From assembly GCA_965250085.1 (NCBI GenBank), contig OZ252287.1, positions 1,280,001-1,344,000 of the forward strand: a DNA stretch of 64,000 nucleotides. The letters are read 5' to 3'. A program made the translations under genes and the position numbers. Below are positions 1-34,690 of this stretch, piece by piece (the first letter of the stretch is position 1; each line of letters opens with the position of its first letter). A model generated the notes under the pieces. That model saw only the letters and a program-made list of their open reading frames with translations, was not told the DNA's origin and did not search any database. Source of the stretch: Candidatus Altimarinota bacterium. GTDB taxonomy: Bacteria > Patescibacteriota > Gracilibacteria > CAIRYL01.

Positions 1-456
1 TTTTTTCGGCGAAAAAATGCCGCTGATTTTGCCACTCCAAATGAAGGTGAACCACTGGACGATATGGCATTCCAAAGTCTTCTGAGGAGTGCCGATGTTC
101 GTTTTCAAGACCCTACTGGAAATACTCTTAATGATCGAGAAGTGGCAACGCTCAATCCTTTTGGTTTTTATGAAATTCCAGAGATTCCAGATCACCCACT
201 CAAGCCTATAATTGAAGCCTTTGCAGAACAATATCGCGAATTATGCAGCACTCATGGCATGAGAGCAGTAAGTTGTCCCACAGATACCTCATTTAATGCT
301 TTGTTACCGCGTATTATACAAAGTGTACGGGCTGTTTTGCGTACAGCTGATGCGAGCAGTGCTGAGGGCTATGTTATTGCGCTTGATAAAGCATTGAACG
401 AAGGTGGGCAACAAGGATTTTTAGAAAAAACACAAGAAATTTTTGACCTCCTGTAG
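1..456 (+). CDS. hypothetical protein, probably 5'-truncated by the window edge
   Basis: Frame 1 is open from base 1 (FFRRKNAADFATPNEGEPLDD-M) into the 64..456 ORF. It ends 14 bp before the next gene. Confidence 0.7.
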   Translation, partial: FFRRKNAADFATPNEGEPLDDMAFQSLLRSADVRFQDPTGNTLNDREVATLNPFGFYEIPEIPDHPLKPIIEAFAEQYRELCSTHGMRAVSCPTDTSFNALLPRIIQSVRAVLRTADASSAEGYVIALDKALNEGGQQGFLEKTQEIFDLL

Positions 457-470
457 TATATTTCCTCCCT

Positions 471-2198
471 ATGACTCAATTCGAACACGAATGGCAAGAC
501 CTGGCAACCGGCTTAGAGCAGTTACAAACTGTTTATCTAGGTTATGAAGAAGACCTGGAAGATCTGGCATTTGATATGCGAAACAGGGCATTGGGAAAAG
601 AGAGCCCTCTGCGTTTGAATATTGATGGCGCCAGATTGCGCATTAATCAGCGGGAAGAAGAAGTAACAATGATTGAGCAGGTTGCGCAGTTTATTCATAT
701 TCTTTATGAGAAGCTGGGAGATGCAGATAAGGCTTCTGTCAATGGCGAGCTCATGGAGCGTGTAGCTGCTATTGCTAGCAACATTCGCACCGGTATTCGT
801 GATCGCATTGAACCATTGGTACCAGAGATAGGAAAACTCCGTTGGCGTGATGTAAATGTGGAGATCGTGAGGATCAAGCATGCTTTTCGTGGTGAACAAC
901 TTGGAGCAGGTATGACCAAATTGCGCCAAATTATCCATCGGAGGGAATTGGGGCAGGAGGATTACACTTTGGAGCACGAAGATATTCATTTGGATATTAA
1001 AAAAGAAGACTCAGATGAAGTTATGTTACAAAAACTCGCAACATTTAGCCGCGCAATTCAGCGAAAGTGTGATGAAAAATTTCCAGAACCAATGGAGCGT
1101 GAGGTGGAACAATTTCCAAGTAGCGCAGTATATTGGACAGAGGTGGCAACCGGTTTCATGCAACTCAAGGAACAGTTTCGTGGCTCCGATCTTGGAGCAG
1201 AATTTTCTAGTCTCAAAAACCTTATTGACTCTGAAAGAATTAAAGAAGCCGGTTACCACATTGAAACCGAGTGGGCTACGCTGCAGATAGAACCAGACAC
1301 GCCATACTACCAAATGGCTGACCAAATAGCTGAATTTGTTGAAATAGTCCAAAAAGGGAATCCTGACAAATTCCCTGAACCGTTTACTGTTGCTGAGGCA
1401 AAAAAAGCACTTGATGCTCAAAAATTCCATTGGCGTGATGCTATTGCGGCAATAGATCATCTCCAAAGCTCTGCTTACCCAGCAAATGAGTATCCGGCTC
1501 TTCAGGAACTCAAGGCAAGAATGGAAGCCGGGACACTCGGAGTTGATTCAGATATGGCGATTTATATCGGTCCCATTCGTTTGAATATCAAAAAAACAAA
1601 TAGCGACACTGATATTCAACATAAAGTAGCCGTGTTTATTGGTGAGCTCAAACAAGTCGTACCAGATGAAAAGACGTCGACTACAGAACCACTTGATCCA
1701 AAATTGGATCAGACTTTCTGGCGAGATATTGAAGCGGCTTTGATCAGCTTAGAAGATGTATATGGCACGAATAAAACATTTCGAAAGCTGGTTTTCTTTA
1801 TAAAGGAAGGTATCTTGGGGGCGAATGATTTTACTGCCAACGTAGGTGGACACACTTTAGAGATAAAAAGTACTGATAGTGATTTGGAAATGCGCGATAA
1901 GCTCAATACATTCATTCGTGAACTCAATGAAGGCAGAATTGTAGAACTTGATCGTAAGGCAATGGAGCGAATACAAGAACTTGAGAGAAATCAAATAGAG
2001 CTCGAAGAAGAATATCGTAGACAAACACAACGAGCACGATTAGAGTTTGAAGAGCAAAGACAAACTGCCAGACGTGTTACTGAACAGAAGGAACAAAGCA
2101 TAGAGCAACTCGAAAATGAACTCAGAAGAGTGCGGATGAGGCCGACCCCAGCACCAAGACCGGCTCCGGTTCGTCCGGTTCGTTCTTATAGCGGGTAG
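471..2198 (+). CDS. hypothetical protein with five tandem ~95-aa repeats and a C-terminal coiled coil
   Basis: 575 aa. Recurring W(R/Q/T)(D/E) motifs at W8, W125, W222, W321 and W417, each followed by L.I....SD.EM..K.A.FI-like segments. E/Q/R-rich coiled coil after about aa 490. Confidence 0.8.
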   Translation: MTQFEHEWQDLATGLEQLQTVYLGYEEDLEDLAFDMRNRALGKESPLRLNIDGARLRINQREEEVTMIEQVAQFIHILYEKLGDADKASVNGELMERVAAIASNIRTGIRDRIEPLVPEIGKLRWRDVNVEIVRIKHAFRGEQLGAGMTKLRQIIHRRELGQEDYTLEHEDIHLDIKKEDSDEVMLQKLATFSRAIQRKCDEKFPEPMEREVEQFPSSAVYWTEVATGFMQLKEQFRGSDLGAEFSSLKNLIDSERIKEAGYHIETEWATLQIEPDTPYYQMADQIAEFVEIVQKGNPDKFPEPFTVAEAKKALDAQKFHWRDAIAAIDHLQSSAYPANEYPALQELKARMEAGTLGVDSDMAIYIGPIRLNIKKTNSDTDIQHKVAVFIGELKQVVPDEKTSTTEPLDPKLDQTFWRDIEAALISLEDVYGTNKTFRKLVFFIKEGILGANDFTANVGGHTLEIKSTDSDLEMRDKLNTFIRELNEGRIVELDRKAMERIQELERNQIELEEEYRRQTQRARLEFEEQRQTARRVTEQKEQSIEQLENELRRVRMRPTPAPRPAPVRPVRSYSG

Positions 2199-2255: not shown

Positions 2256-4337
2256 TTAAGATTCACCATTCGCCTTATGTAACAAGTTATCTCTAAATTC
2301 GGAAATTCCCCGCCGCCCCTTTGTGAGAGTTTTTACAAGATCAAGATCACCCACTGGTTTTCCCATAAGTAGCAATTGACCATACTCATCAGGCGCTGGC
2401 TTATCTCTTTTACCGGCATATGGCGTTGGTTTTAAATGTACAGGGATGCTTTGTATCGTGTCACTATCGGTGTCCAAAGCATGGAGAACGCCGGCACTAA
2501 TTCCATTTTGTGCAGTGATGTCTTGAGGGTCAATTTCCCCATCTGCCCATTGATAGTGCCTATGGTAAAAAGCGTCTGCAAAACGAACCTTTACTCCACC
2601 ATTTTCATCTGTAGTGAGCAAGAGATTCATAGTATGATCCTCCACCTCTTCTGGACCTTCAGAGTTCATCAGATATTCACCCTCTTCCGAACGGCGAGCA
2701 TCGTATTTCCCATTCATTTGAATTGGTGCATTAACCACAAAATCAAAGGTTCTCAGCTCATATCTCTGAATCTCCTCAACCTGTGAAAGTAAATATTGAT
2801 ACTGCTCAAAATCACCACTCGCAATCTCGTCATATGCCTGTCGTAATAGTTTATTCACATGGACCTTTTGCCACATGTCAAACAGCAACTGTTTCGCCTG
2901 AGCATGATGACGACAATCCCCTAATCCAAGAGCCAGACTCGTAGAAATATTTGTACGAGAATCTACTCCCTTTTTTGCACCATCAGCTACACCTCCTGTT
3001 TGTACCAGGCCTCTCAGTGTTTTGTCATAAACTTTATGTCCATCACTTTGAAGATTTTCTAAGTCAAGTTTCTCTGTTTCAAAAGTAGATCGGAGGAATA
3101 TATCCACAATCTTCAAAAATTGGTCAATATCAGCAACATCCATCAAAGATGCTGGAGCTCCAGAAAGTATTTGTCTTGCCTCCTCTTGAGAATACTTCAA
3201 ACAACTCAAATCTATCATTTCGGCAATTGGGGTTGAAAGTAGAGTTTCGATTTGGCCACGATCAGTACGATTGATAGCGTGATCGCTAAGATCTCCTCCA
3301 AAATCAAAATTCCCACCCACAAAGTTAGAGCTCAGTCCTCTGTAGCTAAAAGAATTTGCGCGCCACATTTCTGGAAGAAAATTCTTTTCTATTGTTGTTG
3401 TTGCAAAATCTTTTCCAAGACGACTTTGTTTTTCTTGCAATTGCTCTTGTGAGAAATTCTTAATGTCATCTAGATGTTGTCGCAAGGCATCAATAGCCTC
3501 TCGGTTCGCACTATTTGGAGGGGCAAGTTTTTCCAAATTAGATAATGTCGACTCAATCTCCCATGTTGCCGTGGCAACGGATAAGACTTTTGTTGTGATA
3601 TCTTTAATTGCTGTAGCGTCTTTTTCAGCGATACAAGCCAACTCTAACATTGTAACAACACACCAGTAGTCTTCTGACTCAACACCACCATCACGTTCGC
3701 AGGAGAGGTAGACCATTTGTGCCACTCTCTTTGCACGTTCCACTTGTCCCAATTCCAGGAGACGATATACCACATTAACGCCAGGATAGTAGTCAAAATC
3801 CATAAGATATCCATTTTCATAAGCCTCAAGAGACTTCTCGGTTTCTCTTTTTACTAAATGTGCCTTTCCCATCGCTCCATAAACTTCTCCATTTACTTGT
3901 CCTTCTTTCACAAGATCATTGCAGAGTTCAAGGGTTCTGTCAGGCTGATTCGTTTTATTACAAGCCACCGCACAAAATTCACAAACAATGCTTGAAGAAC
4001 GAAATTCATCATTCTCACATTGTTCATACACTCGAAGCATATTTTCAAATGATCCAAGAGCCTTAAAATGATTAAAAATCATCATAAGGGTGGAAGGTGG
4101 AAAATCGATCAGATCATTTTCATCAAAAGCATAGTGCTCCAAGCGACTGATTTTTTTGTCTTTTTCTTCTGTCTCACTCCGATGAGAAAGACATTCTGCC
4201 ATAGCTCCATGTTGTTTTCTCTGCAGGTCAATTATGCCTCTATTTTGGGTTGTTGCTAGATCAAGGTCTATCTCTGCCGGATTAGTGCTAAATTTTTGAA
4301 ATTCGAGGACGGGTACGGATGTATTAGAAGATGACAT
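2256..4337 (-). CDS. TPR-S/DUF4071 (MAP3K TRAF-binding-like) domain fused to an EDR1/transglutaminase-like putative Cys enzyme domain
   Basis: N-terminal motifs EVYGAMGK, YYPGVN, DYWCVVTMLE and WEIESTLSNL are typical of DUF4071/TPR-S. C-terminal GDCRHHAQAKQLLFD...HTMNLL...FADAFY resembles the EDR1 GxCRHRALLFKxLxD...HxxN...D motif. Confidence 0.65.
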   Translation of the reverse strand: MSSSNTSVPVLEFQKFSTNPAEIDLDLATTQNRGIIDLQRKQHGAMAECLSHRSETEEKDKKISRLEHYAFDENDLIDFPPSTLMMIFNHFKALGSFENMLRVYEQCENDEFRSSSIVCEFCAVACNKTNQPDRTLELCNDLVKEGQVNGEVYGAMGKAHLVKRETEKSLEAYENGYLMDFDYYPGVNVVYRLLELGQVERAKRVAQMVYLSCERDGGVESEDYWCVVTMLELACIAEKDATAIKDITTKVLSVATATWEIESTLSNLEKLAPPNSANREAIDALRQHLDDIKNFSQEQLQEKQSRLGKDFATTTIEKNFLPEMWRANSFSYRGLSSNFVGGNFDFGGDLSDHAINRTDRGQIETLLSTPIAEMIDLSCLKYSQEEARQILSGAPASLMDVADIDQFLKIVDIFLRSTFETEKLDLENLQSDGHKVYDKTLRGLVQTGGVADGAKKGVDSRTNISTSLALGLGDCRHHAQAKQLLFDMWQKVHVNKLLRQAYDEIASGDFEQYQYLLSQVEEIQRYELRTFDFVVNAPIQMNGKYDARRSEEGEYLMNSEGPEEVEDHTMNLLLTTDENGGVKVRFADAFYHRHYQWADGEIDPQDITAQNGISAGVLHALDTDSDTIQSIPVHLKPTPYAGKRDKPAPDEYGQLLLMGKPVGDLDLVKTLTKGRRGISEFRDNLLHKANGES

Positions 4338-4367: not shown

Positions 4368-5793
4368 GGGAGCGTACCAATTTGGGGGCCTGTGATTTAA
4401 GAATAACGGCTTGAGGTAAAGCTCTGGAGAAAGTTATCGAGATAAAGTAGAATATTTCTTCTTTTTTTCTTTAATTTATTTATGACAAATACAAAAAAAA
4501 CTTCGATGTCCTGTATGTGAAGGACTCAACACTATAAGAAAAGGGCGTCACCGGAACCATCTTCGTATTTACTGCCATGATTGCGGCAAGAAAATAACTC
4601 TCAACGACAAAAACAAAAAAGCAGAAGAAATCCTGAAGGCTCATCTCAACAGAAACTCATGCCGTATTCTCGCCGTAGAAAATGAGATGGATAAAAAGAC
4701 GATTTGCAAAATCATAAACAAGACAACGCCAAAACTAATTGATTCCAATGAGCTGACTCGTTTGATGTGTCCTCAGAATTATTGTGGGATTGTTTTGGTT
4801 GATGGTAAGTGTATTGGAGTAAAGGATTCCAAGCAGACTGTCACCGGAAGAAAAGCGAAGACAAAGAAGGGGCTTGTAGACATATCCTTCATGGATTATG
4901 AATCTCACGATATTCCTGTTCATATTTTGGCAGCTTCAGAGAATATGCATGATATTGAGCAAGGATTTTTAATGCTCAGGGAGATTGGCTATCCGCTGAA
5001 GGTGGTTGTTTGTGATGAGAGCATGGGAGAGACGATGAGTGTGGCGAAGAGAATCTTTCCCGATGTTATTGTTCAGCTCTGCCTTACTCACTATAGTGCT
5101 GCATTAGATAGGAATATGAAGGTGAACAGTGCCAAAAGAAAAATATCTTCCTTGGAGAAAAAACTAGCTCATCTCGGTAAGAGCATTCTCATATCTTCTC
5201 ACAAGTATAATAAGAATAAGGCTGTGGAATTGAGCAATCAATTAGCAGATATTGAACATGAATACCACTACCTGATTACTGTTCAGCATATTTTACAGAA
5301 AATATTTTGGTCGGCAATGACGACAGAAGACCTCAATAAATTAGAAGACGAGCTCAATATCGCTATTGCTGGAATGGATTTAAAGAAATATCCACATGCT
5401 CAAAAAATACGAGATGCTTATGATAACTACTACAAGAAAAGAGATTTGATTATTGCCTCTATCAACCATCCTGAGCTTGATATTCCAAGAACTACAAATC
5501 TCATTGAAGGCTATCACAGCACCTCTGTGGAGATTAGGCTCAGTGGTATTCGTGGGTTTGAGCATGAAGAAACTGCTGCCAATTATATAAATGCTCTTAT
5601 TCTCAGGAGAAGATTCTGGAAATTCACCGACTGTAAAACAAAATTCAAGCACTTGAATGGTCAATCTCCTCTTCAAGCTGCTCATCCAAAAAACCTATTT
5701 GGCTTCGACTTCCATTCTCATGATTGGATTCCTTTTTGTATCAATCTCAACCGCAAAAAATGACAGAACAGGTCCCCAAATTGGTACGCTCCC
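4368..5793 (+). mobile_element. IS256/Mutator-like insertion sequence, 1426 bp
   Basis: IRL GGGAGCGTACCAATTTGGGGGCCTGT (4368-4393) and IRR ACAGGTCCCCAAATTGGTACGCTCCC (5768-5793) match at 25/26. A 9-bp direct repeat ATAACTTAG flanks it at 4359-4367 and 5794-5802. Confidence 0.93.
4482..5763 (+). CDS. DDE transposase (IS256-like) with an N-terminal Zn ribbon; ATG 4482 is out of frame at an A8 run
   Basis: Motifs VLVDGK, VVCDES, VQLCLTHY and RTTNLIEGYH. The frame is open upstream of 4687 and encodes CPVC...CHDC from 4501. Confidence 0.85.
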
Positions 5794-5907
5794 ATAACTT
5801 AGTGTATTATTGTACACCTTTATATGTAAAAAGCAAATCTAAATGACATCGTTATAAAACAGTGATACCCTGCAGGATGGCTTTTTTTAGTGTCTTTTAG
5901 AAGTATT

Positions 5908-7323
5908 ATGAGAAAATTAGAAGTTCTCCTTATTCATCTCCCGCGTAAATCTAAAATTATTCCGCGTATCACTCTGATGCCCATGGGTATCTTTGCTATA
6001 GCTGATTATCTGGACTCAAATGGCACACCTGTACAAATTATCCACGAAGGGCTTGAAAAACAGATCAATCCAAAATTCTCATTATTACGATATGTTCGTA
6101 AAAACAACATACACATCTGCGCATTTGCTTTACATTGGCATCAGCAAGCTCGCAGGGTCATACAGATGGCTCGAAAATTGAAGGCAAAAATACCTCAAAT
6201 GACCATTATTATTGGCGGTGTGACTGCTTCTATTTTTGCTGATGAAATTCTCGAAAAGCATCCAGAAATTGATTTTGTGATCAAAGGAGACTCAGAAATA
6301 CCAATGCATCAACTCTGCACGGCATTACAAGCAGATAAACTAGATATTTTACCAACTATTCCCAATTTGATGTGGAGAAGTGCAAAAGGTGAAATTCAAA
6401 AAAATGACGACTATCAATTAGACAATACACAGGTACGGGAGATTTCTTTCACAAATTTTAAACTTCTGAAAAATTATAGAAGATACCTTTCTTTTCGCCA
6501 TAACCAGCCTCTTATCTGTGGTCAAAAAGCGTTTTCTTTTAGTGCCGGAAGAGGTTGTAATGCCGGGTGTCCCTACTGTGCTGGTTCACGCCGAGCAGAG
6601 CAAAAATACTACAATCGAACTAAAGTACAACTTTTCCCGCATGGCTACGTAATTAGGCAACTGGAAGGAATGATACAAAACGGCGTTCATACTTGGAACT
6701 CATGTTTTGATCCCGATCCGAAATCGGACTATTATATTAAGTTATTTCGGGAAATCAGAAAAAAAGACCTTACAATAACTCATTTTTTTGACTGTTTTGG
6801 CTTGCCAACAAAACAATTTTTAGATGAATTTCGAAAAACATTTACAAAAAAATCGGCTATCAATATTTCTCCCGAAACCGGATCGGATGAGCTCCGCAAA
6901 AAAATTCGCACCTTTTACTATACCAATAAGGAACTTTTGGAGATCTTAGCATATATTATAAGACAGCGAATGAATTGCTCAGTGTATTTTTCCACAGGGC
7001 TCCCATTTGAAAAAAAAGAAGACTTGTTGCAATCTTTTAAACTCATAGATACTATTCGCAACAAATTTCCAAAAGTGAGAATTTATTCAGGTGTTATCGA
7101 TTTGGAACCCGGATCAGCACTATTTGACTATCAATCCAGACTAGGGGTGCGGAGTAAGATTCGTAACTTCGAAACTTTATTGGAAGTGCAAAAGAAAACT
7201 TTAGAGGTAAATTATTCAACGAGAGAATTTTCACGAAGACAAATTGAGAAGCACTGTGATCTTTTGAAGATTGAAGCACAATGCCGTAAAAAGAAATCAT
7301 TTTTTTTTACAAGATTTTTGTAA
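5908..7323 (+). CDS. B12-binding domain / radical SAM protein
   Basis: N-terminal PMGIFAIADYL, IIIGGVTAS and IDFVIKGDSE (cobalamin-binding domain) plus GRGCNAGCPYC (CxxxCxxC). ATG 5908 preferred over GTG 5890. The C-terminus may be truncated by a T9 frameshift. Confidence 0.9.
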   Translation: MRKLEVLLIHLPRKSKIIPRITLMPMGIFAIADYLDSNGTPVQIIHEGLEKQINPKFSLLRYVRKNNIHICAFALHWHQQARRVIQMARKLKAKIPQMTIIIGGVTASIFADEILEKHPEIDFVIKGDSEIPMHQLCTALQADKLDILPTIPNLMWRSAKGEIQKNDDYQLDNTQVREISFTNFKLLKNYRRYLSFRHNQPLICGQKAFSFSAGRGCNAGCPYCAGSRRAEQKYYNRTKVQLFPHGYVIRQLEGMIQNGVHTWNSCFDPDPKSDYYIKLFREIRKKDLTITHFFDCFGLPTKQFLDEFRKTFTKKSAINISPETGSDELRKKIRTFYYTNKELLEILAYIIRQRMNCSVYFSTGLPFEKKEDLLQSFKLIDTIRNKFPKVRIYSGVIDLEPGSALFDYQSRLGVRSKIRNFETLLEVQKKTLEVNYSTREFSRRQIEKHCDLLKIEAQCRKKKSFFFTRFL

Positions 7324-13882: not shown

Positions 13883-14054
13883 AAATCTTTTCCATCCCTA
13901 ATAACACATTGCTCAATAACTCAGAACAATCTATACCAGTTGCTCTCTGGTATTCGGTAAATTCTTGTATTACCGCTATTCTTAATTCTAGATAGAGTTC
14001 ATGAAGTTTACTGTCCGCATATTCATCATTCATAGAAATTAGAAAAAGAATCAT
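13860..14054 (-). CDS. small hypothetical protein coupled to the recombinase gene
   Basis: ATG at 14054 overlaps the recombinase TGA (ATGA). 64 aa. Confidence 0.4.
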   Translation of the reverse strand: MILFLISMNDEYADSKLHELYLELRIAVIQEFTEYQRATGIDCSELLSNVLLGMEKIFNQHQRH

Positions 14055-15334
14055 TGAAGAAACACCTCTCCGCCTTTCATTACAAGATTTCCCTTGAGAC
14101 ACCTGAGCATATTGCTTTTTTCCTTCGCGTTGCCATGCTGAAGGATAAAACAAATATACTCATGAGCAGTCGTGAGCTTCGCCTTTTCTCCATGTCTCAT
14201 TTGCTCCAGTCTATTTATCTTCTCTACTTCATGTTCAATCTTGCTATGAATATGGAATGAATCTTCTTTAATAGTCTCCACAACACTTGCCACCTCATCA
14301 ATGAGTTTCTCTTCTCTAATGTATTTCTCCTTACATGTTCCGTATCCAGCATACCTGTTACAGCGATAATATGAATATGCCTTTCCGTGTCTGTTTATAT
14401 GTGTTTCTCCAGAAACTCCTGATCCACAATTCCCACACTTGAAAATTTCATTGAAGTAGAACTGTTTTCTGCCCCATTTTCCTTTTAATGATGTCTTCAG
14501 TCGTTCTTGTGCTTCGCTGAAGAGCTTTTTTGTAATAATTGGTTTATATGAACCCTTGTACCAATTCCCTGATCCTGTGGGGTATTCAAATTCTCCATAG
14601 TAGTATGGATTCTTCAAAAGACGATACATCATACTGAAAGTCAGTTTTTTTCCTTTCGAAGTTCTGAATCCTTCATCAGTAAGAAATTCTAAGACTTGCC
14701 TTCCACTGTATTTTTCATTCACCAGATACTCAAATGCTTTCTTCACAAATGGTGCACGTTCTTCGTCTTGAATAACCGTACTCGGATCTTCAAATCGCTT
14801 TCCACGAAGAAGTTTGTATCCTATCGGTGGTGGTCCGGGACGAACTCCTGTTGCACACTTTGCTCGCATTCCTCTTTTGACATTCTTTGATCTATTATCA
14901 TTCTCCAGTTTTGCTTGAGAACAGAGAATCATCAGAAGAAATTTCTCATCAGGAGTATTGGTAAATGTTTGTCCGCTTGTTTGAATTTTTATCAATACTT
15001 GCTGATCCATCAAATCGACGAGTGAACCAAGATCACCAGCATTTCTACTGAGTCTATCTGGTGCCCATGTGAGAATGGCATTGAATCTTCTCTCCCTTAA
15101 TCCTTGGATAAGCTTCTCATAGCCCTTTCTGACTCCCGAGTCCTTAGCTGACTTACTTTCTTGAATTGTTTCTACAATAGAAATTCCTTCCTTTTCTGCC
15201 AACTGACTCATTTCTTTGATTTGGGAATCTATCGAGAGAGCTTGTCTTTCATCTGCTTCAGATGATTTGCGGGCATAGAGACAATACTTTAGTTCTATTT
15301 CTGCCGTTTCTGTGTGTTTTACATCATTCATCAT
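14051..15334 (-). CDS. large serine recombinase (resolvase + recombinase + Zn ribbon)
   Basis: YCLYARKSS catalytic Ser, ESKSAK, WAPDRLSRN, PPIGY, LKNPYYYG and CGNCG...RC...C. Confidence 0.93.
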   Translation of the reverse strand: MMNDVKHTETAEIELKYCLYARKSSEADERQALSIDSQIKEMSQLAEKEGISIVETIQESKSAKDSGVRKGYEKLIQGLRERRFNAILTWAPDRLSRNAGDLGSLVDLMDQQVLIKIQTSGQTFTNTPDEKFLLMILCSQAKLENDNRSKNVKRGMRAKCATGVRPGPPPIGYKLLRGKRFEDPSTVIQDEERAPFVKKAFEYLVNEKYSGRQVLEFLTDEGFRTSKGKKLTFSMMYRLLKNPYYYGEFEYPTGSGNWYKGSYKPIITKKLFSEAQERLKTSLKGKWGRKQFYFNEIFKCGNCGSGVSGETHINRHGKAYSYYRCNRYAGYGTCKEKYIREEKLIDEVASVVETIKEDSFHIHSKIEHEVEKINRLEQMRHGEKAKLTTAHEYICFILQHGNAKEKSNMLRCLKGNLVMKGGEVFLQ

Positions 15335-25318: not shown

Positions 25319-27712
25319 TTAATATCCCTTATTCTCAATCAGTTTCTCCAATACTTCTCTTGGGAACATTGGTTTCTTTTCTGCAAGTCCTTGGTGAAAG
25401 AGGACCGTCGACGGAGTGAGTGCGGGGAGCGTATTGGCTTCGATCACAATAATATTTCCAGTATCTATTTGAAGAAAAGCATCAATACGGGCGTAGCCAC
25501 GAATACCCAGTTTTTTAGCGACGAGTTCAATAGATTGTTTTGCTCTTTTTAGAACCTTTGGTTTCACGATTTCCGGAGGTGGGGGAGTAATATTGATTCC
25601 AGTGCCACCTTGGAATTTTTCTTCAACACTGAGCACCTCACCTTCGGCGACGGTAACACTGGGATTCAGTGCGCGCATCTTTTCTTTTTCTTCGAGAACT
25701 CCTGTAGTGATCTCTATCCATCCTGTTTTTTTACGAAAACTGATCCTTTTGCCCCACATACGGAGTGAATCCGTAACGACAAATGCTTCAAACATCAGAT
25801 TTTTAATTTCCCCCAAGGGCATCTCAATGGGAGTTGCTTGATGCAAAAATGTTTCCGGAGGGATACTGGGCATATTTTTTTTTGCAATGAATATATATTT
25901 CTCAAGATCATCTGGTGAAAAAAGTCGCACAATGCCAGATGAACATCCTTCATCTTGAGGCTTCACAATAACCGTCTTCGTCTCAAAATCTGTTGTCATA
26001 TGATCCCAGAACCTCCGTATTGCATCCTTTTTCATCCTTCCTAATAGTTGCAACTTCATTACCTGTTTCGGAGCGGTGAAAATGCCTTGTTTTTTGAGGC
26101 CACTCAATTTCTTCCCTGTTGCAAATTTGTCCATACAAAGTTTAGATGCTTTTGCATCAGATCCGTTGTATTTTATTTTTTTCTGAGAAAGCATTTTTTG
26201 CAATGTCCCATTTTCCCCAATACCACCATGAAGCCCCAAAAAGAGGAACTTTGGTTTTCTATTCAAAAACTTCCGAAGAGATATTTTTTGCGGAACAAAA
26301 AATGGTTCTGACGATTGCCCTTCTTCAAGGGCAAGACGGAGCCGCACTTTTTCTACCAGAAAATGAAGCCGGCTTTCATTCTCTCGTGCAGTGTGACAAT
26401 TCTCTTCTATTTCTTCCACTGTGTGATTGAGCGTAAAAGCATAGGGGAGATGCCATACGTTATGGTTCAGATCAAGAAGATATGGCTCGGGATGATATGC
26501 ACTTGATTCTCGAAGCTTGAGCCATACATTTGTTCCGCTCATAAGAGAAACTTGTCGCTCTGAAGTCTTTCCGCCAAAGAGGACGGGAATTGGCTTTTTA
26601 TTCTTTTTTACCCCCTCTAACTCCCCCTGAAAGGGGGAGGATATGTTGTATCTCCGACATGCATTTCTGACGACAAACTTCAGGAGATCTCGATGACTCA
26701 TGCCAATACGTGCCGATTGCTGAAAGAGAAAGCTGTTTTGTTCCATACCACTGACGGGATTGAAATCCGGAAACCAAATATTTCCATCCTTCATGAGCCA
26801 TCCGTCGAAACGTGCAAAGTCCCGCATTCCCAAAATTGTAAAAAGTTGCTCAGCCTGTACTTGAATCCGTTCTACTATTTCATTTGAAAATCGTGGAGGG
26901 CAATGATATTTCACATGATTTGTCGGCAGATATTTCTTCCGATAGTCAAGGATATGATGTTTTTCTTTGAGTTCTTTTTGTTTTTGAAACATTTCTATTT
27001 CCGTGGGCAATATAGCCACTGGCATTCCAAATCTGTTTTGCAGGATGATCACTGTAAATTCTGTTCCTTCACAGAAAGGCTCTATTACAACTCTGGTATC
27101 AATGCGCTTGGAAAATAAATAATCTACTTTCTCAAGTGCTTCTTGTACACTTGTTACGGCAAACACTCCTATACTTGAGCCACCGGAAGCAGGCTTAATA
27201 ATTGCTTTTTTTAGATGATGATTTTTAAAAAACTTCGTAAGTATTTTTTTATGATCTTTATGATATATTTTCAAAACCTCTGAAGGAAGTGTGTAGAATC
27301 CCTGATCTCGAATATATTCATTAGCAATGTATTTATCAAAAGCACGCTTACATGATGCAGCATTGGATCCGATGTATGGAATACGATGGCGTTCCAAAAA
27401 TCTTTGGAGTTCTCCATCTTCTCCAAATGGTCCATGAATAACGGGAAAGGTAATGTCCGTAGACCTTAGGAGTTCCACAAGTTGTCTCTGAGACAACGGC
27501 TTCGCTGTCTGGCTGAGTTTAAAGTCAAAATCAGAGGGTGTATTGGAATACAGTGCAGAAGGAGAGATATGATATGACCTTTTTTTCTGATCAAAATACA
27601 CGGGAATAATTTCAACTCCATCTCCTTTGAGGTGATCAAGTACTGATCGTGCAGAATTGAGAGAGATGCCACGCTCGAGGGATGGGCCACCAGAGAGGAG
27701 TGCTATGCGCAT
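25319..27712 (-). CDS. ddl: D-alanine--D-alanine ligase, tandem two-module (plant-like) form
   Basis: Module 1: GGPSLERGISLNSARS, HGPFGEDG, KPASGGSSIG. Module 2: GGKTSERQVSLMSG, LHGGIGENG, KPQDEGCSSG, IEANTLP. Confidence 0.9.
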   Translation of the reverse strand: MRIALLSGGPSLERGISLNSARSVLDHLKGDGVEIIPVYFDQKKRSYHISPSALYSNTPSDFDFKLSQTAKPLSQRQLVELLRSTDITFPVIHGPFGEDGELQRFLERHRIPYIGSNAASCKRAFDKYIANEYIRDQGFYTLPSEVLKIYHKDHKKILTKFFKNHHLKKAIIKPASGGSSIGVFAVTSVQEALEKVDYLFSKRIDTRVVIEPFCEGTEFTVIILQNRFGMPVAILPTEIEMFQKQKELKEKHHILDYRKKYLPTNHVKYHCPPRFSNEIVERIQVQAEQLFTILGMRDFARFDGWLMKDGNIWFPDFNPVSGMEQNSFLFQQSARIGMSHRDLLKFVVRNACRRYNISSPFQGELEGVKKNKKPIPVLFGGKTSERQVSLMSGTNVWLKLRESSAYHPEPYLLDLNHNVWHLPYAFTLNHTVEEIEENCHTARENESRLHFLVEKVRLRLALEEGQSSEPFFVPQKISLRKFLNRKPKFLFLGLHGGIGENGTLQKMLSQKKIKYNGSDAKASKLCMDKFATGKKLSGLKKQGIFTAPKQVMKLQLLGRMKKDAIRRFWDHMTTDFETKTVIVKPQDEGCSSGIVRLFSPDDLEKYIFIAKKNMPSIPPETFLHQATPIEMPLGEIKNLMFEAFVVTDSLRMWGKRISFRKKTGWIEITTGVLEEKEKMRALNPSVTVAEGEVLSVEEKFQGGTGINITPPPPEIVKPKVLKRAKQSIELVAKKLGIRGYARIDAFLQIDTGNIIVIEANTLPALTPSTVLFHQGLAEKKPMFPREVLEKLIENKGY

Positions 27713-28017
27713 AAAAATTAAGTAATAAGTGGCAAGTAAACAAGTAGGAATTACGAATGAAGCCTGTCCGCCTTTTTTCGGCATGGTCTGTGGCGGAAAT
27801 TACGGATAAAAAAATAAAATGGATTTTAAATTGCTAACGGCTACAGGCTAAGAGCTAACAGCTCTTAAATCAATATTTTTGCAAAGAGTTTGTATGCTCA
27901 AAATATCGTTTCTATTAAACTATAGAAGGATATCCTTCGCAAGAAAAATGTACGTTTTTTAGATTTTTTGCAAAAATTTATTTTTTATAAAAAAATACAC
28001 AACTCTGTCTTTTTCTC

Positions 28018-28156: not shown

Positions 28157-30703
28157 TTACTTCATCCAATCTGGCAGATCTTCTTCAGAAGATTCTGTAT
28201 TATGACGGGGAGGGTCTTCTGTGTTAGATTGTTCACTTGCGATATCGGCAGGTTTGTCTTGAGAGGATTCAGAAACAAATTCTGACTCTGATGCTTCCTG
28301 CGCTGAAGCGTGAATATCTTCTTTTAGCCAGTCGGGCATATCATCTTCTGCGATAGGATAACTTTCAGTTGTGATATTTTGAGGCTCAATTTCTGTTTTT
28401 GCTTCTCCTTCTCCCGCAGATTCTGACAAAGCCTGTCCTGAAGATTTTTTAGAGACAGAAGCTTCTACTCGCGTTTCTTGCAGCCAGTCTGGAACAGGTG
28501 TCGATTCATCCTGCAGAGCAATCTGAGCACTTTGAACTCCTTTTTTAGAAGAGGTGGAAGAATCTTTTTCAAGTTCCTGTCCTTCGGTCTTGAGCCATGT
28601 TGGAGATGGAGATTCATCTTGAACCGTTGAGGCAGTATTCTGGGTACTTTCTTTTTTCGGAGTAGAAGGGACGTCTTCTGTTACTATTTCTGCGGTAGCA
28701 ACTTGCGCTGAAGAAGATTCTGGAACAGGTGCAGCAGATGTTTCAATTTGAGTCACCTGTGCTATCTCGGCATGTTTTTTGTGACGAATACGATCGAAAT
28801 CTTCTAAGACAATTTCTTCAAAAGAAAGATCTGGGTACCGAATTTTTCGAAAGATAAGATAGAAAGCCAGAAGAAGAAGAGGAATACCCAGCAGAAGTAT
28901 GAGGGTCCACCAGAGCCAACCAAGTTTTTTCTTCTCTTTTGCTTCTCCACTTACTTGATCGGAATCTTGTGCAGAATCTTTATCACTTGCGACTTTCTCT
29001 TTGCCACTCTCTTCAGAAGAAGTATCTCCATCGCTACTTTTTGCATCATCAGGCACACTTCCAGGAGCAACAGACGAGATGGCGATATTTTCTGCGGTGG
29101 TAGTACTTCGTCCCACAGCATCTGTCACGGTGAGGATAGTTGTGTACGTTTGAGCTTGGGCATATATGTGCTCAGGATTGACTTCAGAACTCGTTTTCCC
29201 ATCCCCAAAATCCCAAGAGTATGAGAGATCGGTATTCAGCAGTCGATTATCAGCAAATGATTCATCTCCAAATGAAACGGTATTGGTGTTTACAGAGGAA
29301 GAAAACTGCGCTGTAGGAGGAGAGGTCATAATCTCTCGTTCTCTACTAGAGAGCACCGTGATTATTTTTTCTACTTCTGCAATCACTTCCCCGTCTTTGT
29401 GAGCAGTTATTTTGACGGGAAAGATACCGTCATTATTATATTGATACGTATTTCGTGTGCGAATACCTTCATATTCGGACACTCCATCACCATCAAAATC
29501 CCAAGTAATCTGAGCACCTTCAGGGAGTCCAAGAGCCATAAAATCTACACTTTCTCCGGCAAATATTTCCTGCTGACTTATCACCAATTTTTGAGGAAGA
29601 GCAGGAAAAATAGCACCTGATTCTTCATTTTCTTTTGCCAAAACAGTGTCAAAGATTATTTTTCTCTGTACTTTACTTCCTTTGTTTTGATCATTCACCA
29701 CCAGAAGTTCTATGACGACCTCTCCCCACTCTTTTTTAAAATTGGTCGTCCATGATGAGCCGGTACGGAACGAATTGTGTTCTCGATTATCAATGTCGTT
29801 GTCTGGAGTGCCATCTGCATTGGTGTCAAAAAGTGCATTTTTGTCTATGCGGTATTCCACAATATTTCCTTCTGAATTTCCGGCAAAAAATGTGACATTC
29901 CCTTCTTTTCCGGGAAGATAGATGAGTCCATCTTCATTGGCACGGGGAAGCGAGTTCAGTACAGCTTTGAGAGGAAGTGATTTTTGAGCGGTGACACCTG
30001 TTTGGTCAAAAGAGATATCAAGTGTTTTGGATTCTGTCTCTCCAGTAGGATATTTGACGGTAATTTGTGCAGTGCGATTTGGCTTGGATGGATCGTAGGT
30101 ATGACTCCAAGCACTTCCGGTAAAAAACGAGGAATGGGAAGCATTTTCTTTGTCGTTATCAGCAATACCATCTCCATCAGCATCTTCAGTAATATCTGTA
30201 TCAATCCAGTATTCCGAAGGATTTCCACTAGCGTTACCTGGAAAAAATGTGACTTCTGGAGAAGCGGGATCAACGACAAGCACTCCCTCACTATTAAGAG
30301 GTGGAAGAGTCGTAAAAGAAACCTGCTTATCTTCAAAATTTGGATTTAAAATATCTGCTTTTACAAGAGTTATGGTTGTTTGAGTAGCGCCTGATTCGGG
30401 ATCGGTCATGAGGAGGCGCACTTCATACTCTCCCGGTTCCGTAAAGACATGTTCAAATGTTTTTGCACTGGAATTGGTAACACCACTTTCTCCCTGAGGA
30501 ATAATTTCTTCTCCTTTTTTAAGGATCCAGGAATAGTCTACTTTCCCACTCACATTTGATGGCTGAAGATTCAGAGTTTCTCCTATTTTGACATGAACGA
30601 CTCCACTGGCGAGTGTAGTTGAAAGGAGAAAACAAAAAAGAGAAAGAACAACTACAGAGAGAGCTATAAAACTTTGCCAAAGATTTTTAATAAATACAAT
30701 CAT
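28157..30703 (-). CDS. PKD-domain surface protein with a TM anchor and a disordered tail containing P(D/T)W(L/M) motifs
   Basis: Signal peptide, PKD motifs (WDFDGDG, YSWDFGDG), DxDxDG loops, TM segment LWWTLILLLGIPLLLLAFYLIF, and an acidic tail. Confidence 0.88.
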   Translation of the reverse strand: MIVFIKNLWQSFIALSVVVLSLFCFLLSTTLASGVVHVKIGETLNLQPSNVSGKVDYSWILKKGEEIIPQGESGVTNSSAKTFEHVFTEPGEYEVRLLMTDPESGATQTTITLVKADILNPNFEDKQVSFTTLPPLNSEGVLVVDPASPEVTFFPGNASGNPSEYWIDTDITEDADGDGIADNDKENASHSSFFTGSAWSHTYDPSKPNRTAQITVKYPTGETESKTLDISFDQTGVTAQKSLPLKAVLNSLPRANEDGLIYLPGKEGNVTFFAGNSEGNIVEYRIDKNALFDTNADGTPDNDIDNREHNSFRTGSSWTTNFKKEWGEVVIELLVVNDQNKGSKVQRKIIFDTVLAKENEESGAIFPALPQKLVISQQEIFAGESVDFMALGLPEGAQITWDFDGDGVSEYEGIRTRNTYQYNNDGIFPVKITAHKDGEVIAEVEKIITVLSSREREIMTSPPTAQFSSSVNTNTVSFGDESFADNRLLNTDLSYSWDFGDGKTSSEVNPEHIYAQAQTYTTILTVTDAVGRSTTTAENIAISSVAPGSVPDDAKSSDGDTSSEESGKEKVASDKDSAQDSDQVSGEAKEKKKLGWLWWTLILLLGIPLLLLAFYLIFRKIRYPDLSFEEIVLEDFDRIRHKKHAEIAQVTQIETSAAPVPESSSAQVATAEIVTEDVPSTPKKESTQNTASTVQDESPSPTWLKTEGQELEKDSSTSSKKGVQSAQIALQDESTPVPDWLQETRVEASVSKKSSGQALSESAGEGEAKTEIEPQNITTESYPIAEDDMPDWLKEDIHASAQEASESEFVSESSQDKPADIASEQSNTEDPPRHNTESSEEDLPDWMK

Positions 30704-30999
30704 GATGTGGGGTTCAGTATTCGATTTAAATCAGTACGAATTTCTCTAGCTCCTTCAGTCACAGTCGAATCATCCATTTCCTCAATTATTTGTAGGAGTC
30801 TCTCCATTTCTTTTCTTTGTAAGAAAGAGCCTGAAGACCAAAATTTTGCAACAAGACTTCTTGCTTCTTCATTATTTGGAAATGCTAAAGTGGCTTCAAA
30901 TTCAGTCGTTTTCGAGATATTTCTGAAGTTAGCTCCTCGGTCACCATGGAGCTTGTGACCATTTAACCTTTTCCGTGATCGAGTTCTTATTCGTGACAT
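30700..30999 (-). CDS. small hypothetical protein inside the pilin/PKD operon
   Basis: Starts 1 bp after the upstream stop. Its stop overlaps the downstream ATG (ATGA). Confidence 0.65.
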   Translation of the reverse strand: MSRIRTRSRKRLNGHKLHGDRGANFRNISKTTEFEATLAFPNNEEARSLVAKFWSSGSFLQRKEMERLLQIIEEMDDSTVTEGAREIRTDLNRILNPTS

Positions 31000-31000
31000 A

Positions 31001-34000: not shown

Positions 34001-34690
34001 TCGAGATCCGAGTCCGGAAAGCTCTACTGTAAGAGGAGCGACACCGGAAGTGTTGCTGCCTGTAATTTTGACAAATATTTCATTTTCACCAGCATTATTG
34101 GTGCGAACAGTGGTTATGGAGGACCCTCCACTTTGATCGATACTGCTTCCACCTGTTCCGGATCCTCCGGATCCATTGATCGGGGTTCCATCAGGATTCA
34201 GCCCGCTTCCTTCTACGGGGGTCAGATTTTCTTGATCCAGATTGAGATCACCTCTGCCGGCATTCACAAAAAATCGAACGATTGCAAAAGAAAGTAAAAT
34301 AAGAATAATCCCCGCTCCTGCCCAAATTACAATTTTTCGCCCCTTCGTAATATTTTCTTCCTCTCCTCCAGAAAAAATCCAGAGGAATCCTCCATAGATT
34401 ACTGCAATCACTGCAGCGAGTCCTGCAAATCCAAGAAAATAATTAATGATGATCAGGAGTCTCTGTCGAAACGTCTGATTTGTATCGTTACACAATGTGG
34501 GATCCACTTCGTCACACGGAGGGGGGACAAAACACCCTTCTGGGGGACATGGATCATCTCGAAAATCAATTCCTGCCAGGAGATCAATATTTTTGATGCC
34601 TTCCATACCTCCTGCTCCAAAAAAAAGAAGGAGTCCTATTGCAAAAGCGCCAAGGAAAAAGAAGAGTCTTTTCATCTTAGACAGAAGCAT
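31001..34690 (-). CDS. VirB2/TrbC-like pilin domain fused to multiple PKD domains
   Basis: IINYFLGFAGLAAVIAVIYGGFLWIFSGGEEENITKGRKIVIWAGAGIILILLSFAIVRF pilin motif, G/S linker, and repeated WNFGDG/WDFGDG/WDFDGD PKD motifs. Confidence 0.88.
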   Translation of the reverse strand: MLLSKMKRLFFFLGAFAIGLLLFFGAGGMEGIKNIDLLAGIDFRDDPCPPEGCFVPPPCDEVDPTLCNDTNQTFRQRLLIIINYFLGFAGLAAVIAVIYGGFLWIFSGGEEENITKGRKIVIWAGAGIILILLSFAIVRFFVNAGRGDLNLDQENLTPVEGSGLNPDGTPINGSGGSGTGGSSIDQSGGSSITTVRTNNAGENEIFVKITGSNTSGVAPLTVELSGLGSRYPEDDQTIPDSSYHWSYVNASGNTINLGTGNTVVEELSESGRFVFKLRIDPRSDGVETSAGEATFAVEIFPANPDVEFLINGERAKFFQQFALSNALTGITFKPNIQNTGQKQIEEFLWNFGDGSPGMKTESDEVVQHIYPDAGEYKVSLTVTDNLGKSYKKQVTLGIQDTVARFDVSPSERFVEKKITFDGSDSESSFGDIISHEWILIDAEGEKEEIKEERFARTFSKSGNVQISLTVSDTAGKTATAAETIVIASNPPEANFTFASKEASQPSVIKFDASRSQDKDGDALAYSWDFQNDGSFEIQNDTSTQAEFEYSETGAFDVRLKVTDTNGESDETVRQVEIDSVLNVDFTASTFVAHPDEEIIFDATAENAITFFWDFGDGANEQGTEESVSHSFLEKGRYKVKLTAFDVDDEENMTSRTVYIGERDMPVAAYDVRQGNILYIIQDDICGSGKHGIEISRADKITLDASASIDATEAKETLQSVAGRSGLEYEWVFHDGTFSRKKMVTKRFDEVPSEEACYPVELTITDDRTGRKDTAETLWIKIINKEPEMDVLQVSLPKNTSAPVIVPLKVQNARDPDGNIVEYKWWAYRENETEKVGLHTTTIPSTSLILPVHGFPDETHKYFFVVEIMDNFGATLNSEEVFGVSNFVEAKNGENRSPLVDFEMEKATVDEGDTITFFATAEDPFGDTIPDSAYMWDFDGDNVFDAIGTGPQAIFRYDEPGEYNPRLKVVYRGLASSKSKSVFVARKHELPKAAFLYQLQGHNVQFDASTSEVDDSVPNNTVSYEWDLDLQIDSDGDGDSKNDTDETSESFSHFYEELGKRSIKLTITDRLGVQDTVTRDVPVLESGKLLSGSGSRFGFGGGNSGIGSATGVSSSGNAGLFAGIVESVRMKSSHPMTTLDLVCARGVIPAGESTRLLAFVKNANNTLFQGTVEFKIISGNAQLSKKMSESLLGEAFTEITGLGKGRVVIEATAKDTVSGDISEIISLFIE

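Follow-up and report, generated by a model that had tools for sequence, protein, structure and literature searches.

Here we describe a two-domain protein, P0001, in which a TPR-S region of the type found in the MAP3 kinase ASK1 is followed by a thiol-enzyme domain with a predicted transglutaminase/papain-like fold. The combination of TPR-S with this enzyme domain, which we refer to as the 'GDCR' family, is shown to be an evolutionary unit that keeps its order constant across many lineages. Our best explanation, which we regard as evenly poised between right and wrong, is that P0001 works within the producing cell as a sensor-gated cysteine enzyme that is self-contained; an accessory role there against stress or invaders is likely. 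The gene lies in a 64,000-nucleotide stretch of DNA, the whole of which is called the window here, and has the following features:

2256..4337, minus strand: whole gene of P0001, a TPR-S / transglutaminase-fold two-domain protein (open reading frame of 693 aa plus stop)
3426..4226, minus strand: ASK1-like TPR sensor region, aa 38-304 (Pfam, structure match, profile comparison with ASK1)
3531..4100, minus strand: MAP3K_TRAF_bd match within the sensor region, aa 80-269 (Pfam)
2259..3380, minus strand: C-terminal catalytic domain of the 'GDCR' family, aa 320-693, with a predicted transglutaminase-fold Cys-His-Asp site (model, structure matches)
2877..2921, minus strand: nucleophile motif GDCRHHAQAKQLLFD, aa 473-487, with the C475 codon at 2913-2915
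2634..2636, minus strand: codon of H568, the predicted general base, in E566-x-H568-T569 (invariance, model strand)
2574..2576, minus strand: codon of D588, the predicted third triad residue, in D588-x-F590-Y591 (conservation, model)

The gene is real: its reading frame is intact and starts with ATG, every motif quoted in a first-pass annotation of this DNA sits at the position given for it, and the residues numbered 475, 568 and 588 prove to be C, H and D respectively. The placement on the minus strand had been left unsaid there.

The ASK1-type TPR-S half

TPR-S was reportedly defined by Burroughs and Aravind in 2020. In ASK1, the TPR region positions the substrate kinase of ASK1. We find the N-terminal half of P0001 supported as a specific ASK1-type TPR-S, with a generic TPR excluded. 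PF13281 (MAP3K_TRAF_bd, the former DUF4071) matches P0001 with an E-value of 2.8e-9 and 36.9 bits (cut-off 24.1), while PF20308 (TPR-S) covers aa 97-190 with 26.5 bits by hmmscan (cut-off 27.6) and 29.2 bits in a six-frame search of the genome. Among 46 homologues, the two models match 19 and 20 sequences respectively at E<=0.01, PF20308 reaching 7.7e-14 at best. In the structural search, the top match is the central regulatory region of ASK1 (5ulm_B), aligned over 255 residues spanning 38..304 of the model with Z 13.3 and an rmsd of 3.9; the best TPR other than ASK1 reaches Z 10.7. Comparison of the P0001 family profile with human ASK1 (5ulm_A) yields an E-value of 1.3e-14 in one stretch of about 253 positions, which takes in the F..GIN, YW and W.L.S motifs. 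In P0001 the N-terminal motifs read YPGVN (184-188), DYW (223-225) and WEIEST (259-264). The assignment of this half to DUF4071/TPR-S in the first-pass annotation is thereby borne out, down to its distinction from a generic TPR.

The TPR array of P0001 is thus homologous to that of ASK1 (MAP3K5; PDB 5ULM / 8QGY), but the two proteins differ in what accompanies it. P0001 has neither the kinase domain nor the thioredoxin-binding domain of ASK1; Pfam finds no kinase domain after the TPR region, and a thiol-enzyme domain follows it instead.

The 'GDCR' enzyme domain and its relatives

The AlphaFold2 model of full-length P0001 is of high confidence (pLDDT 92.1, pTM 0.93), and a pTM of this height indicates that the two domains are fixed relative to each other; the model of the C-terminal domain reaches a pLDDT of 96.6. 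In the full-length model helix 475-507 begins with C475; H568, which opens the HTMN motif (aa 568-571), lies within strand 563-576, and D588, inside FADAFY (aa 586-591), stands two residues past strand 582-586, the next strand after that of the histidine. G471, G473, D474, C475, R476, H568 and D588 are invariant in 46 sequences of the family. Across 80 diverse sequences D474, C475, R476 and H568 are again invariant, and conservation of D588 reaches at least 90%. A transglutaminase/papain-like fold, predicted from the model and its structure matches and with the predicted triad C475/H568/D588 on canonical secondary-structure elements, is supported for the C-terminal domain; the fold type and the three residues agree with what had been proposed from the DNA alone.

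The fold prediction draws on two structural searches. In one of them, each of the 29 matches that reach Z 5.2 or more is a transglutaminase-fold enzyme, after which the score falls to Z 3.3. In the other, which has a top Z of 7.1, the matches with Z of at least 5 are transglutaminase-fold thiol enzymes apart from three exceptions by title, namely the axonemal protein 9fqr_Qy, which we take to be a carrier of a transglutaminase-like domain, menin (3re2, Z 5.0) and Legionella Ceg10 (9b8d, Z 5.0). N-acyltransferases and amide synthases score highest (7qi3, Z 7.1, aligned across residues 14-374 of the model; 8oom, Z 6.7), and arylamine N-acetyltransferase 1e2t scores Z 6.2; a small-molecule substrate is therefore possible. 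The C71 enzyme PeiW and the C93 enzyme LapG are both among the matches of the domain, as are band 4.2 and XPC/Rad4. Foldseek returns only weak matches for the domain model (TGM3, E 0.015) and mostly TPR proteins for the full model. The best ESM Atlas scores, 0.81-0.82, lie below the 0.9 level and give no more than a lead; two of the five matches shown are transglutaminase-like clusters. Structural Z scores of 5-7, each modest by itself, speak to the predicted fold and not to the reaction.

Judged by these matches, NAT/GdmF, TglA of S. pyogenes (9CRN), TGM2, TGM3 and factor XIII, LapG (BTLCP, MEROPS C93) and vasohibin would have the same fold as the C-terminal domain (Z 5.4-7.1, 141-219 residues aligned) and the same order of triad residues, in which the Cys begins a helix while the His and Asp follow on successive strands. 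However, their sequence similarity to the domain is undetectable by Pfam and PDB sequence searches. The C-terminal 370 aa of P0001 go unmatched in Pfam, NCBIfam and PADLOC, and the domain finds no match in PDB sequence searches. Neither PF01841 (Transglut_core, searched on P0001 at E<=1) nor the Pfam NAT family matches P0001 or the 46 and 48 relatives scanned. The family has instead its own motifs, GDCRHHAQxKQ, ExHT, DxFY and GNFxFGGQLPDH, and about 150 more residues ahead of the Cys than the known transglutaminase-fold enzymes. Kinship of P0001 with a Transglut_core protein encoded in the adjacent operon was also considered and is ruled out (hhalign E 0.26).

The first-pass annotation had assigned the C-terminal half to the family of the EDR1/CTR1 N-terminal domain (PF14381, EDR1_CTR1_ARMC3_pept) and had seen in P0001 a protein that joins two MAP3K-associated domains, a reading that we consider very unlikely. 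The two domains belong to a common superfamily and have in common the nucleophile motif G-x-C-R-H, and in both the residue 12 positions past the Cys is acidic. For example, P0197 (L035:310-1839), a genuine PF14381 protein from a chlamydial genome, contains GVCRHRSLLYKVLAD, which agrees with GDCRHHAQAKQLLFD at 6 of 15 positions (G, C, R, H, one L and the final D), and the best stretch in an hhalign comparison of the family profile with P0197 is exactly this motif. In addition, the accessible part of a JBC survey of 2023 (PMC10318531) puts EDR1 in the transglutaminase cluster near PeiW and LapG, both of them structural matches here. However, the P0197 alignment has an E-value of 0.11 over 18 columns, and comparison with all three available PF14381 proteins gives 0.085 on an unrelated stretch. 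The PF14381 HMM, which does find P0197 as a positive control (31.3 bits), matches neither P0001 (E<=1) nor anything in its genome (E<=10), and it matches none of 46 family members (E<=0.01) and none of 48 divergent members (E<=0.05). The His regions differ as well, with GHAWIE...IDP in PF14381 proteins against EDHTMN...FADAFY in P0001, which also has no kinase fused to it. Kinship with EDR1/CTR1 is accordingly not upheld, and since only the short G-x-C-R-H motif is common to P0001 and PF14381, the joining of two MAP3K-associated domains was an over-reading.

Family distribution and genomic setting

Besides itself, P0001 has 66 homologues at E<=1e-3, the best with 46% identity and an E-value of 4.5e-174, and the family of its C-terminal domain comprises about 200 representative clusters at 50% identity (E<=1e-3), 83 of which reach E<=1e-30. 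In all 11 of the long proteins in which Pfam sees both, the catalytic domain comes after TPR-S, which is located 150-300 aa upstream of it. The module of TPR-S and 'GDCR' domain is also embedded in Ala-rich proteins of 2-5 kaa. NUDIX, cNMP_binding, SLOG, PDEase_I or HD domains occur as single cases among 23 long family members, and we count these nucleotide-linked domains in favour of sensor gating. A literature search for an architecture of TPR-S plus thiol enzyme found nothing, and the accessible text of PMC7159879 mentions neither TPR-S nor ASK1.

Of 32 homologous genome loci, 23 come from gut or rumen Alphaproteobacteria MAGs and 3 from obligate intracellular Chlamydiota; the gut and rumen Alphaproteobacteria are not known to be intracellular. 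The neighbours of homologues are mostly housekeeping genes (32 flanking ORFs scanned at 12 genome loci and a further 25 at 6 loci from metagenomes, with no TIR or cyclase in either set), and these neighbourhoods differ from typical defence islands. No conserved neighbour gene was found at the homologous loci. PADLOC-DB 2.0 holds no family for P0001 (E<=1), the BFVD viral structures give no match at E<=0.001, and 125 pattern matches on IMG/VR contigs include no relative.

By appearance the host is a Peregrinibacteria/CPR bacterium with a tiny genome. In this genome the gene is present as a single copy, flanked by phage and IS remnants, and it is carried by none of 40 relatives from the family, order and class of the host. 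It is an accessory gene of the host genome, probably gained by horizontal transfer, and the remnants of phage and IS elements lie in the same stretch. A compositional island, on the other hand, is ruled out because the GC content of the gene (0.408) is close to that of the window (0.400). The 'island' of the first-pass annotation therefore stands as far as the flanking remnants and the absence from relatives go, but neither base composition nor the housekeeping surroundings of the homologues fit it.

The gene at 471..2198 is convergent with that of P0001, not co-oriented, and its protein, P0002, belongs to no family in Pfam, NCBIfam or PADLOC. Homologues of P0002 and of two upstream operon proteins are found in none of the 32 homologous genome loci. 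P0002 is ruled out as a partner on this ground, and the role once suggested for it alongside P0001 is not borne out. A promoter and terminator scan is uninformative, with 8 promoter-like sites where 5.8 are expected and no terminator. The stretch is present in four listed sequencing runs, all from one sample and one study, with no RNA run among them.

A proposed sensor-gated enzyme and its rivals

If P0001 is a sensor-gated enzyme, the TPR-S region would pack rigidly against the thiol enzyme with its C475/H568/D588 triad, as modelled, in the cytoplasm. The TPR-S would bind a trigger, which may be a protein, a peptide or else a small ligand of nucleotide type such as the one proposed for Thoeris effectors that carry a TPR, and this binding may open or position the active site. 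Cys475 would then form an acyl-enzyme intermediate, leading to cleavage, deamidation or cross-linking of a protein target inside the producer, presumably as part of an accessory stress or anti-invader response. We count for a cytoplasmic, accessory protein that P0001 has no hydrophobic leader, signal peptide or disordered leader in sequence or model, its N-terminus consisting of confidently modelled helices; that a profile search of its own genome gives no match for FHIPEP (type III secretion marker) or VirB4 (type IV secretion marker); and that the 40 relatives do without the gene. Against sensor gating we count that no signal-making partner was found in the genome or the scanned flanks, that the neighbours of homologues are housekeeping genes, and that neither PADLOC nor IMG/VR yields a match or relative.

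A parallel is offered by ThsI of type VIII Thoeris, described in the accessible part of a preprint (10.64898/2025.12.03.692087) as an effector that cADPR activates and whose TPR domain had been given a predicted part in TIR signalling by 'Aravind and colleagues'. Like P0001, ThsI would combine a presumed-sensor TPR and an effector enzyme in one polypeptide, a likeness of architectural logic and not necessarily of TPR family (PF20308). The effector domain, in ThsI a CMP-hydrolase, is a different one, and P0001 has no TIR gene beside it or, by the TIR_2 profile, in its genome. A stricter form of the sensor-gated reading, which we hold to be distinctly improbable, would make TPR-S plus 'GDCR' a stand-alone immune or stress module: the ASK1-type TPR would directly bind a nucleotide, either cyclic or derived from ADP-ribose, that is supplied in trans or by another cell (an invader or a partner), and so unleash a transglutaminase-fold protease or cross-linker of a new class.

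Three other readings were weighed against the sensor-gated enzyme. P0001 may be an enzyme outside any conflict, whether a NAT-like acyltransferase or a protein modifier whose TPR merely recruits substrate. N-acyltransferases and amide synthases do head the structural matches (7qi3 and 8oom), the homologues lie among housekeeping genes with no conserved defence partner, PADLOC gives no match, and no viral copies were found (BFVD, IMG/VR); we nevertheless find this rather unlikely, given the patchy distribution of a single-copy gene that none of the 40 relatives carries, the phage and IS remnants adjoining it, and the failure of the Pfam NAT and Transglut_core models to match. That P0001 might instead be a pseudo-enzyme without catalysis, serving as a scaffold in the manner of ARMC3, XPC or band 4.2, is barely conceivable: inactive members are common in the transglutaminase fold according to the accessible part of PMC10318531, and band 4.2 and XPC/Rad4 are among the matches here, but the invariance of C475, H568, D474 and R476 in 80 diverse sequences, together with the near-invariance of D588, argues against it.

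CPR bacteria live attached to other cells, and P0001 could by analogy with Legionella and Salmonella papain-fold effectors be secreted or injected, its TPR recognising a molecule of a host or partner cell and its enzyme modifying proteins there. This lifestyle counts for such an effector, as do the homologues at the three chlamydial loci, the ankyrin-repeat genes near homologues at L004 and L039, and weaker structural neighbours that are effectors themselves (Ceg10, Z 5.0; SpvD, Z 3.8; RavJ, Z 3.4). At the chlamydial locus L001, moreover, a gene for a CesT-family type III chaperone (E 4.7e-31) follows 376 bp downstream on the same strand. This adjacency, however, holds at just one of the two chlamydial loci whose flanks were scanned (L001 and L005, with L023 left out). 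The helical N-terminus of P0001 free of signal peptide or disordered leader, the lack of FHIPEP and VirB4 matches, the predominance of gut and rumen Alphaproteobacteria among the loci and the occurrence of the module inside Ala-rich proteins of 2-5 kaa weigh against injection as well, and we judge it unlikely.

The C-terminal domain of P0001 represents a sizeable family of predicted thiol enzymes with strictly conserved active-site motifs that Pfam, NCBIfam and PADLOC leave uncovered, and this 'GDCR' domain is almost always tied to a bacterial counterpart of the ASK1 regulatory TPR. The models are confident enough (pLDDT 92-97) for ligand screens and mutagenesis guided by structure to be designed straight from them. 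Once found, the ligand of the TPR and the target of the enzyme would extend the bacterial sensor-effector repertoire by a new type of effector. The same answers could illuminate what the poorly understood TPR region of ASK1 recognises: if the bacterial module does sense nucleotides, the TPR of animal ASK1 would have a nucleotide sensor as its ancestor, and binding of such a ligand might persist in it.

The ASK1-type and thiol-enzyme domains of P0001

The protein P0001 joins an N-terminal TPR-S region to a C-terminal thiol-enzyme domain and is encoded as follows.

Window 2256-4337, minus strand: intact open reading frame of 693 aa (P0001)

Each motif quoted in the first-pass annotation was found in its place, and residues 475, 568 and 588 are the Cys, His and Asp of the triad that it had proposed. 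At E<=1e-3, 66 other proteins are homologous to P0001 (best 46% identity, E 4.5e-174), most of them over about 90% of its length. Given the intact frame, the motifs and these homologues, the gene is therefore real and conserved.

The N-terminal half is not a generic TPR. PF13281 MAP3K_TRAF_bd (formerly DUF4071) covers aa 80-269 at 36.9 bits, above its cut-off of 24.1, and PF20308 TPR-S matches aa 97-190 with 26.5 bits in hmmscan (cut-off 27.6) and 29.2 bits in a six-frame genome search. Human ASK1 (5ulm_A) is matched by a profile of 80 family members at E 1.3e-14, in one stretch of 253 positions. When the full-length AlphaFold2 model (pLDDT 92.1, pTM 0.93) was compared with 48,161 representative chains, the central regulatory region of ASK1 was the top match (Z 13.3, rmsd 3.9 Å, 255 residues), as against Z 10.7 for the best TPR other than ASK1. 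The family match, the profile match and the structural rank thus define a specific ASK1-type TPR.

The C-terminal domain (aa 320-693), named 'GDCR' from its Cys motif, is without match in Pfam, NCBIfam and PADLOC models, and the equivalent region has none in 46 homologues (E<=0.01) or 48 divergent ones (E<=0.05). Invariant in 46 full-length homologues are G471, G473, D474, C475, R476, Q483, D487, E566, H568, T569, D588, F590 and Y591; no exception to D474, C475, R476 or H568 is seen across 80 more diverse sequences, in which D588 is conserved at 90% or more. A model of the domain alone (pLDDT 96.6, pTM 0.94) starts a 32-residue helix with the Cys and puts the His inside a long strand and the Asp two residues past the next strand. 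This predicted layout is that of the papain/transglutaminase fold and agrees with the first-pass proposal of a transglutaminase/papain-like triad. Foldseek returned weak rows only, transglutaminase 3 first (E 0.015). Exhaustive structural alignment, in which individual Z values are modest, ranked Fusarium NAT1 and S. pyogenes TglA highest (both Z 7.1), followed by GdmF (6.7), TGM3/factor XIII/TGM2 (6.0-6.2), LapG (6.0) and vasohibin (5.4), with TgpA, PeiW/PeiP, PNGase and Rad4 below. Three rows at Z>=5 had no such enzyme title: menin (Z 5.0), Ceg10 (Z 5.0) and an axonemal protein, which presumably carries a transglutaminase-like domain. In a second search all 29 rows at Z>=5.2 were transglutaminase-fold enzymes, the next row standing at Z 3.3.

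A filter-free search with aa 320-693 recovered, at E<=1e-3, 200 representative clusters (50% identity); 152 of these reach E<=1e-10 and 83 reach E<=1e-30. The domain is also embedded in proteins of 2,206 to 4,995 aa; the GDCR motif is present in 15 of 15 long proteins inspected, many of them Ala-rich. Pfam detected TPR-S or MAP3K_TRAF_bd in 19 of 48 divergent members (14 of the other 29 are short, <=486 aa) and in 11 of the 23 long proteins that were scanned; in each of these 11 it precedes the catalytic domain by 150-300 aa. This fixed place, together with the presence in divergent members, argues that the two domains are one module, in which an intact, conserved Cys-His-Asp set sits on a predicted transglutaminase fold and the catalytic domain is held in fixed arrangement relative to the ASK1-type TPR.

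Relation to the EDR1/CTR1 family

The first-pass annotation had likened the C-terminal half to the EDR1/CTR1 N-terminal domain. The EDR1/CTR1/ARMC3 family, PF14381, is mainly eukaryotic apart from bacterial members such as the following.

L035:310-1839, plus strand: P0197, chlamydial PF14381 protein of 509 aa; N-terminal segment hydrophobic, nucleophile motif GVCRHR, GHAWIE...IDP around the His

The EDR1 motif given in the first-pass annotation is genuine, since it is seen in P0197 (GVCRHRSLLYKVLAD), and 6 of 15 positions agree with the P0001 motif GDCRHHAQAKQLLFD. The assignment itself was not supported. PF14381 (now EDR1_CTR1_ARMC3_pept) has no match in P0001 at E<=1, in its 46 or 48 relatives, or in the whole source genome at E<=10; as a positive control, 300 Chlamydiota genomes searched with the same HMM yielded one protein (31.3 bits). 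With hhalign the P0001-family profile met P0197 at E 0.11 over 18 columns, and an alignment of three PF14381 proteins at E 0.085 on an unrelated stretch. Within the length range searched, a collection of 5.8 billion proteins gave only three such proteins. A published survey (PMC10318531) groups EDR1 in the transglutaminase cluster, near PeiW and LapG. Our reading of this weak test, with its three reference sequences, is that the P0001 domain and PF14381 probably share a superfamily but that the P0001 domain lies outside PF14381.

Genomic surroundings and distribution

The source genome is a single contig of 1,368,807 bp, estimated 97% complete, on which the window spans positions 1,280,001-1,344,000. 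Its 16 named SecA homologues (best 67% identity) belong to Candidatus Peregrinibacteria (9), Peribacteraceae (1), Patescibacteria group (4), Gracilibacteria (1) and KSB1 (1), and these taxa indicate a CPR/Peregrinibacteria-like host. The P0001 gene is single-copy and is not anomalous in GC content. A search of 40 relatives (0.6-1.9 Mb; 11 from the same family, 8 from the same order and 21 from the same class) did not find it. A second, weak TPR-S-like match (19 bits, under cut-off) lies in a 469-aa open frame at G000:C1:227911-228159 (+), locus L037. The gene is flanked by the following features, L034 being a locus that reaches from upstream of the window into it.

L034:2882-8246: phage remnant; terminase large subunit (Terminase_6C), small HTH_Tnp_1_2 protein, two N6_N4 DNA methylases (one fused to ParB_N)
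L034:8378-16198 (G000:C1:1274378-1282198; last part window 1-2198), plus strand: three-gene operon converging on the P0001 gene
Window 4687-5763, plus strand: probable transposase remnant, 358-aa ORF with weak IS256/IS1249-type matches (30.7 bits, cut-off 150)

The operon encodes a 1,242-aa Transglut_core protein (E 4.9e-10), a 773-aa AAA_5 (MoxR/dynein-type) ATPase and the 575-aa P0002, which matches no family and bears four spaced W-x-[DE] motifs (about aa 14, 228, 327 and 423). It recalls the peptidase-bearing MoxR systems described by Kaur et al. 2020 (PMC7159879), except that a vWA domain was not observed. The 358-aa ORF directly upstream of the P0001 gene probably encodes a transposase that has decayed or diverged. 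PADLOC recognised nothing around the gene except the methylases.

Elsewhere in the window we observed:

5890-7323 (+): B12-binding radical SAM protein; best TIGR04190, 179 bits, far under the 500-bit cut-off; weak PADLOC PDC-M51A match
14051-15334 (-): large serine recombinase (Resolvase, Recombinase, Zn_ribbon_recom), pointing to a mobile element some 10 kb from the P0001 gene
24318-24968 (-) and 57474-58124 (-): two IS1595-family transposase genes (proteins 99.5%, DNA 99.3% identical over 724 nt), whose near-identity indicates recent IS activity
25319-27784 (-): 821-aa protein in which the D-Ala-D-Ala ligase N and C domains both occur twice, resembling a tandem Ddl fusion
28157-34690 (-): two adjoining large PKD-repeat proteins (848 and 1,229 aa), likely to be surface proteins

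Genome loci carrying P0001 homologues (32 in total)
Alphaproteobacteria, Rhodospirillaceae or Rhodospirillales MAGs, mostly gut or rumen: 23
Chlamydiota: 3
Clostridia MAGs: 2
Obscuribacterales: 1
Bin labelled Limosilactobacillus, flanks like the alphaproteobacterial clade: 1
Archaeal MAG: 1
Unclassified bacterium: 1

A further 25 loci are metagenomic. When flanking ORFs were compared all against all, no neighbour proved common to different clades; common neighbours, such as an upstream P-type ATPase, occur only within the closely related gut alphaproteobacterial group. The gene is stand-alone and patchily distributed.

Possible mechanism and novelty

The TPR-S would serve as input and the thiol enzyme as output, with a protein target cleaved, deamidated or cross-linked via an acyl-Cys475 intermediate. 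That P0001 is such an intracellular sensor-gated enzyme seems to us an even prospect. An exported effector is unlikely. Searches of the source genome for FHIPEP and VirB4 gave no match (a TLC search was silent, as were its controls, and hence carries no weight). Two features hint at dealings with a host: in a Chlamydiae MAG the homologue is followed after 376 bp, on the same strand, by a gene for a CesT-family type III secretion chaperone (L001:11171-11680 (+), E 4.7e-31), and ankyrin-repeat genes lie near homologues at L004 and L039. Flanks at 12 genome and 6 metagenome loci are mostly housekeeping (isoamylase, AlaRS, UvrD, PFK, peptide deformylase, malic enzyme, MgtE, PBP1, ALAD). An enzyme in a non-conflict regulatory or acyl-transfer role is a reading we consider rather doubtful.

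For the sensor-gated enzyme, a nucleotide may be the input, because of the accessory domains of relatives, the definition of TPR-S and a preprint on a Thoeris TPR effector. NUDIX, cNMP_binding, SLOG, PDEase_I, HD, HATPase_c, methyltransferase and FAD/NAD-binding domains each occur once in long family proteins and hint at a nucleotide-signalling context. According to the preprint, the cADPR-activated effector carries a TPR domain earlier predicted to sense TIR products (10.64898/2025.12.03.692087); this TPR may belong to PF20308. No TIR partner was found for P0001: the source genome gave no match to TIR_2, nor was there any TIR or cyclase gene among the flanking genes scanned at those 18 loci, which counts against a classical Thoeris-like arrangement.

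The literature searched yielded no description of the TPR-S and 'GDCR' architecture, nor TPR-S, PF20308 or PF13281 named in bacteria. Burroughs and Aravind 2020 may list TPR-S-linked effectors, so an earlier description may exist. The sensor-plus-effector logic and the fold of the catalytic domain are already known; it is the catalytic family and its obligate pairing with an ASK1-type TPR that appear uncatalogued.
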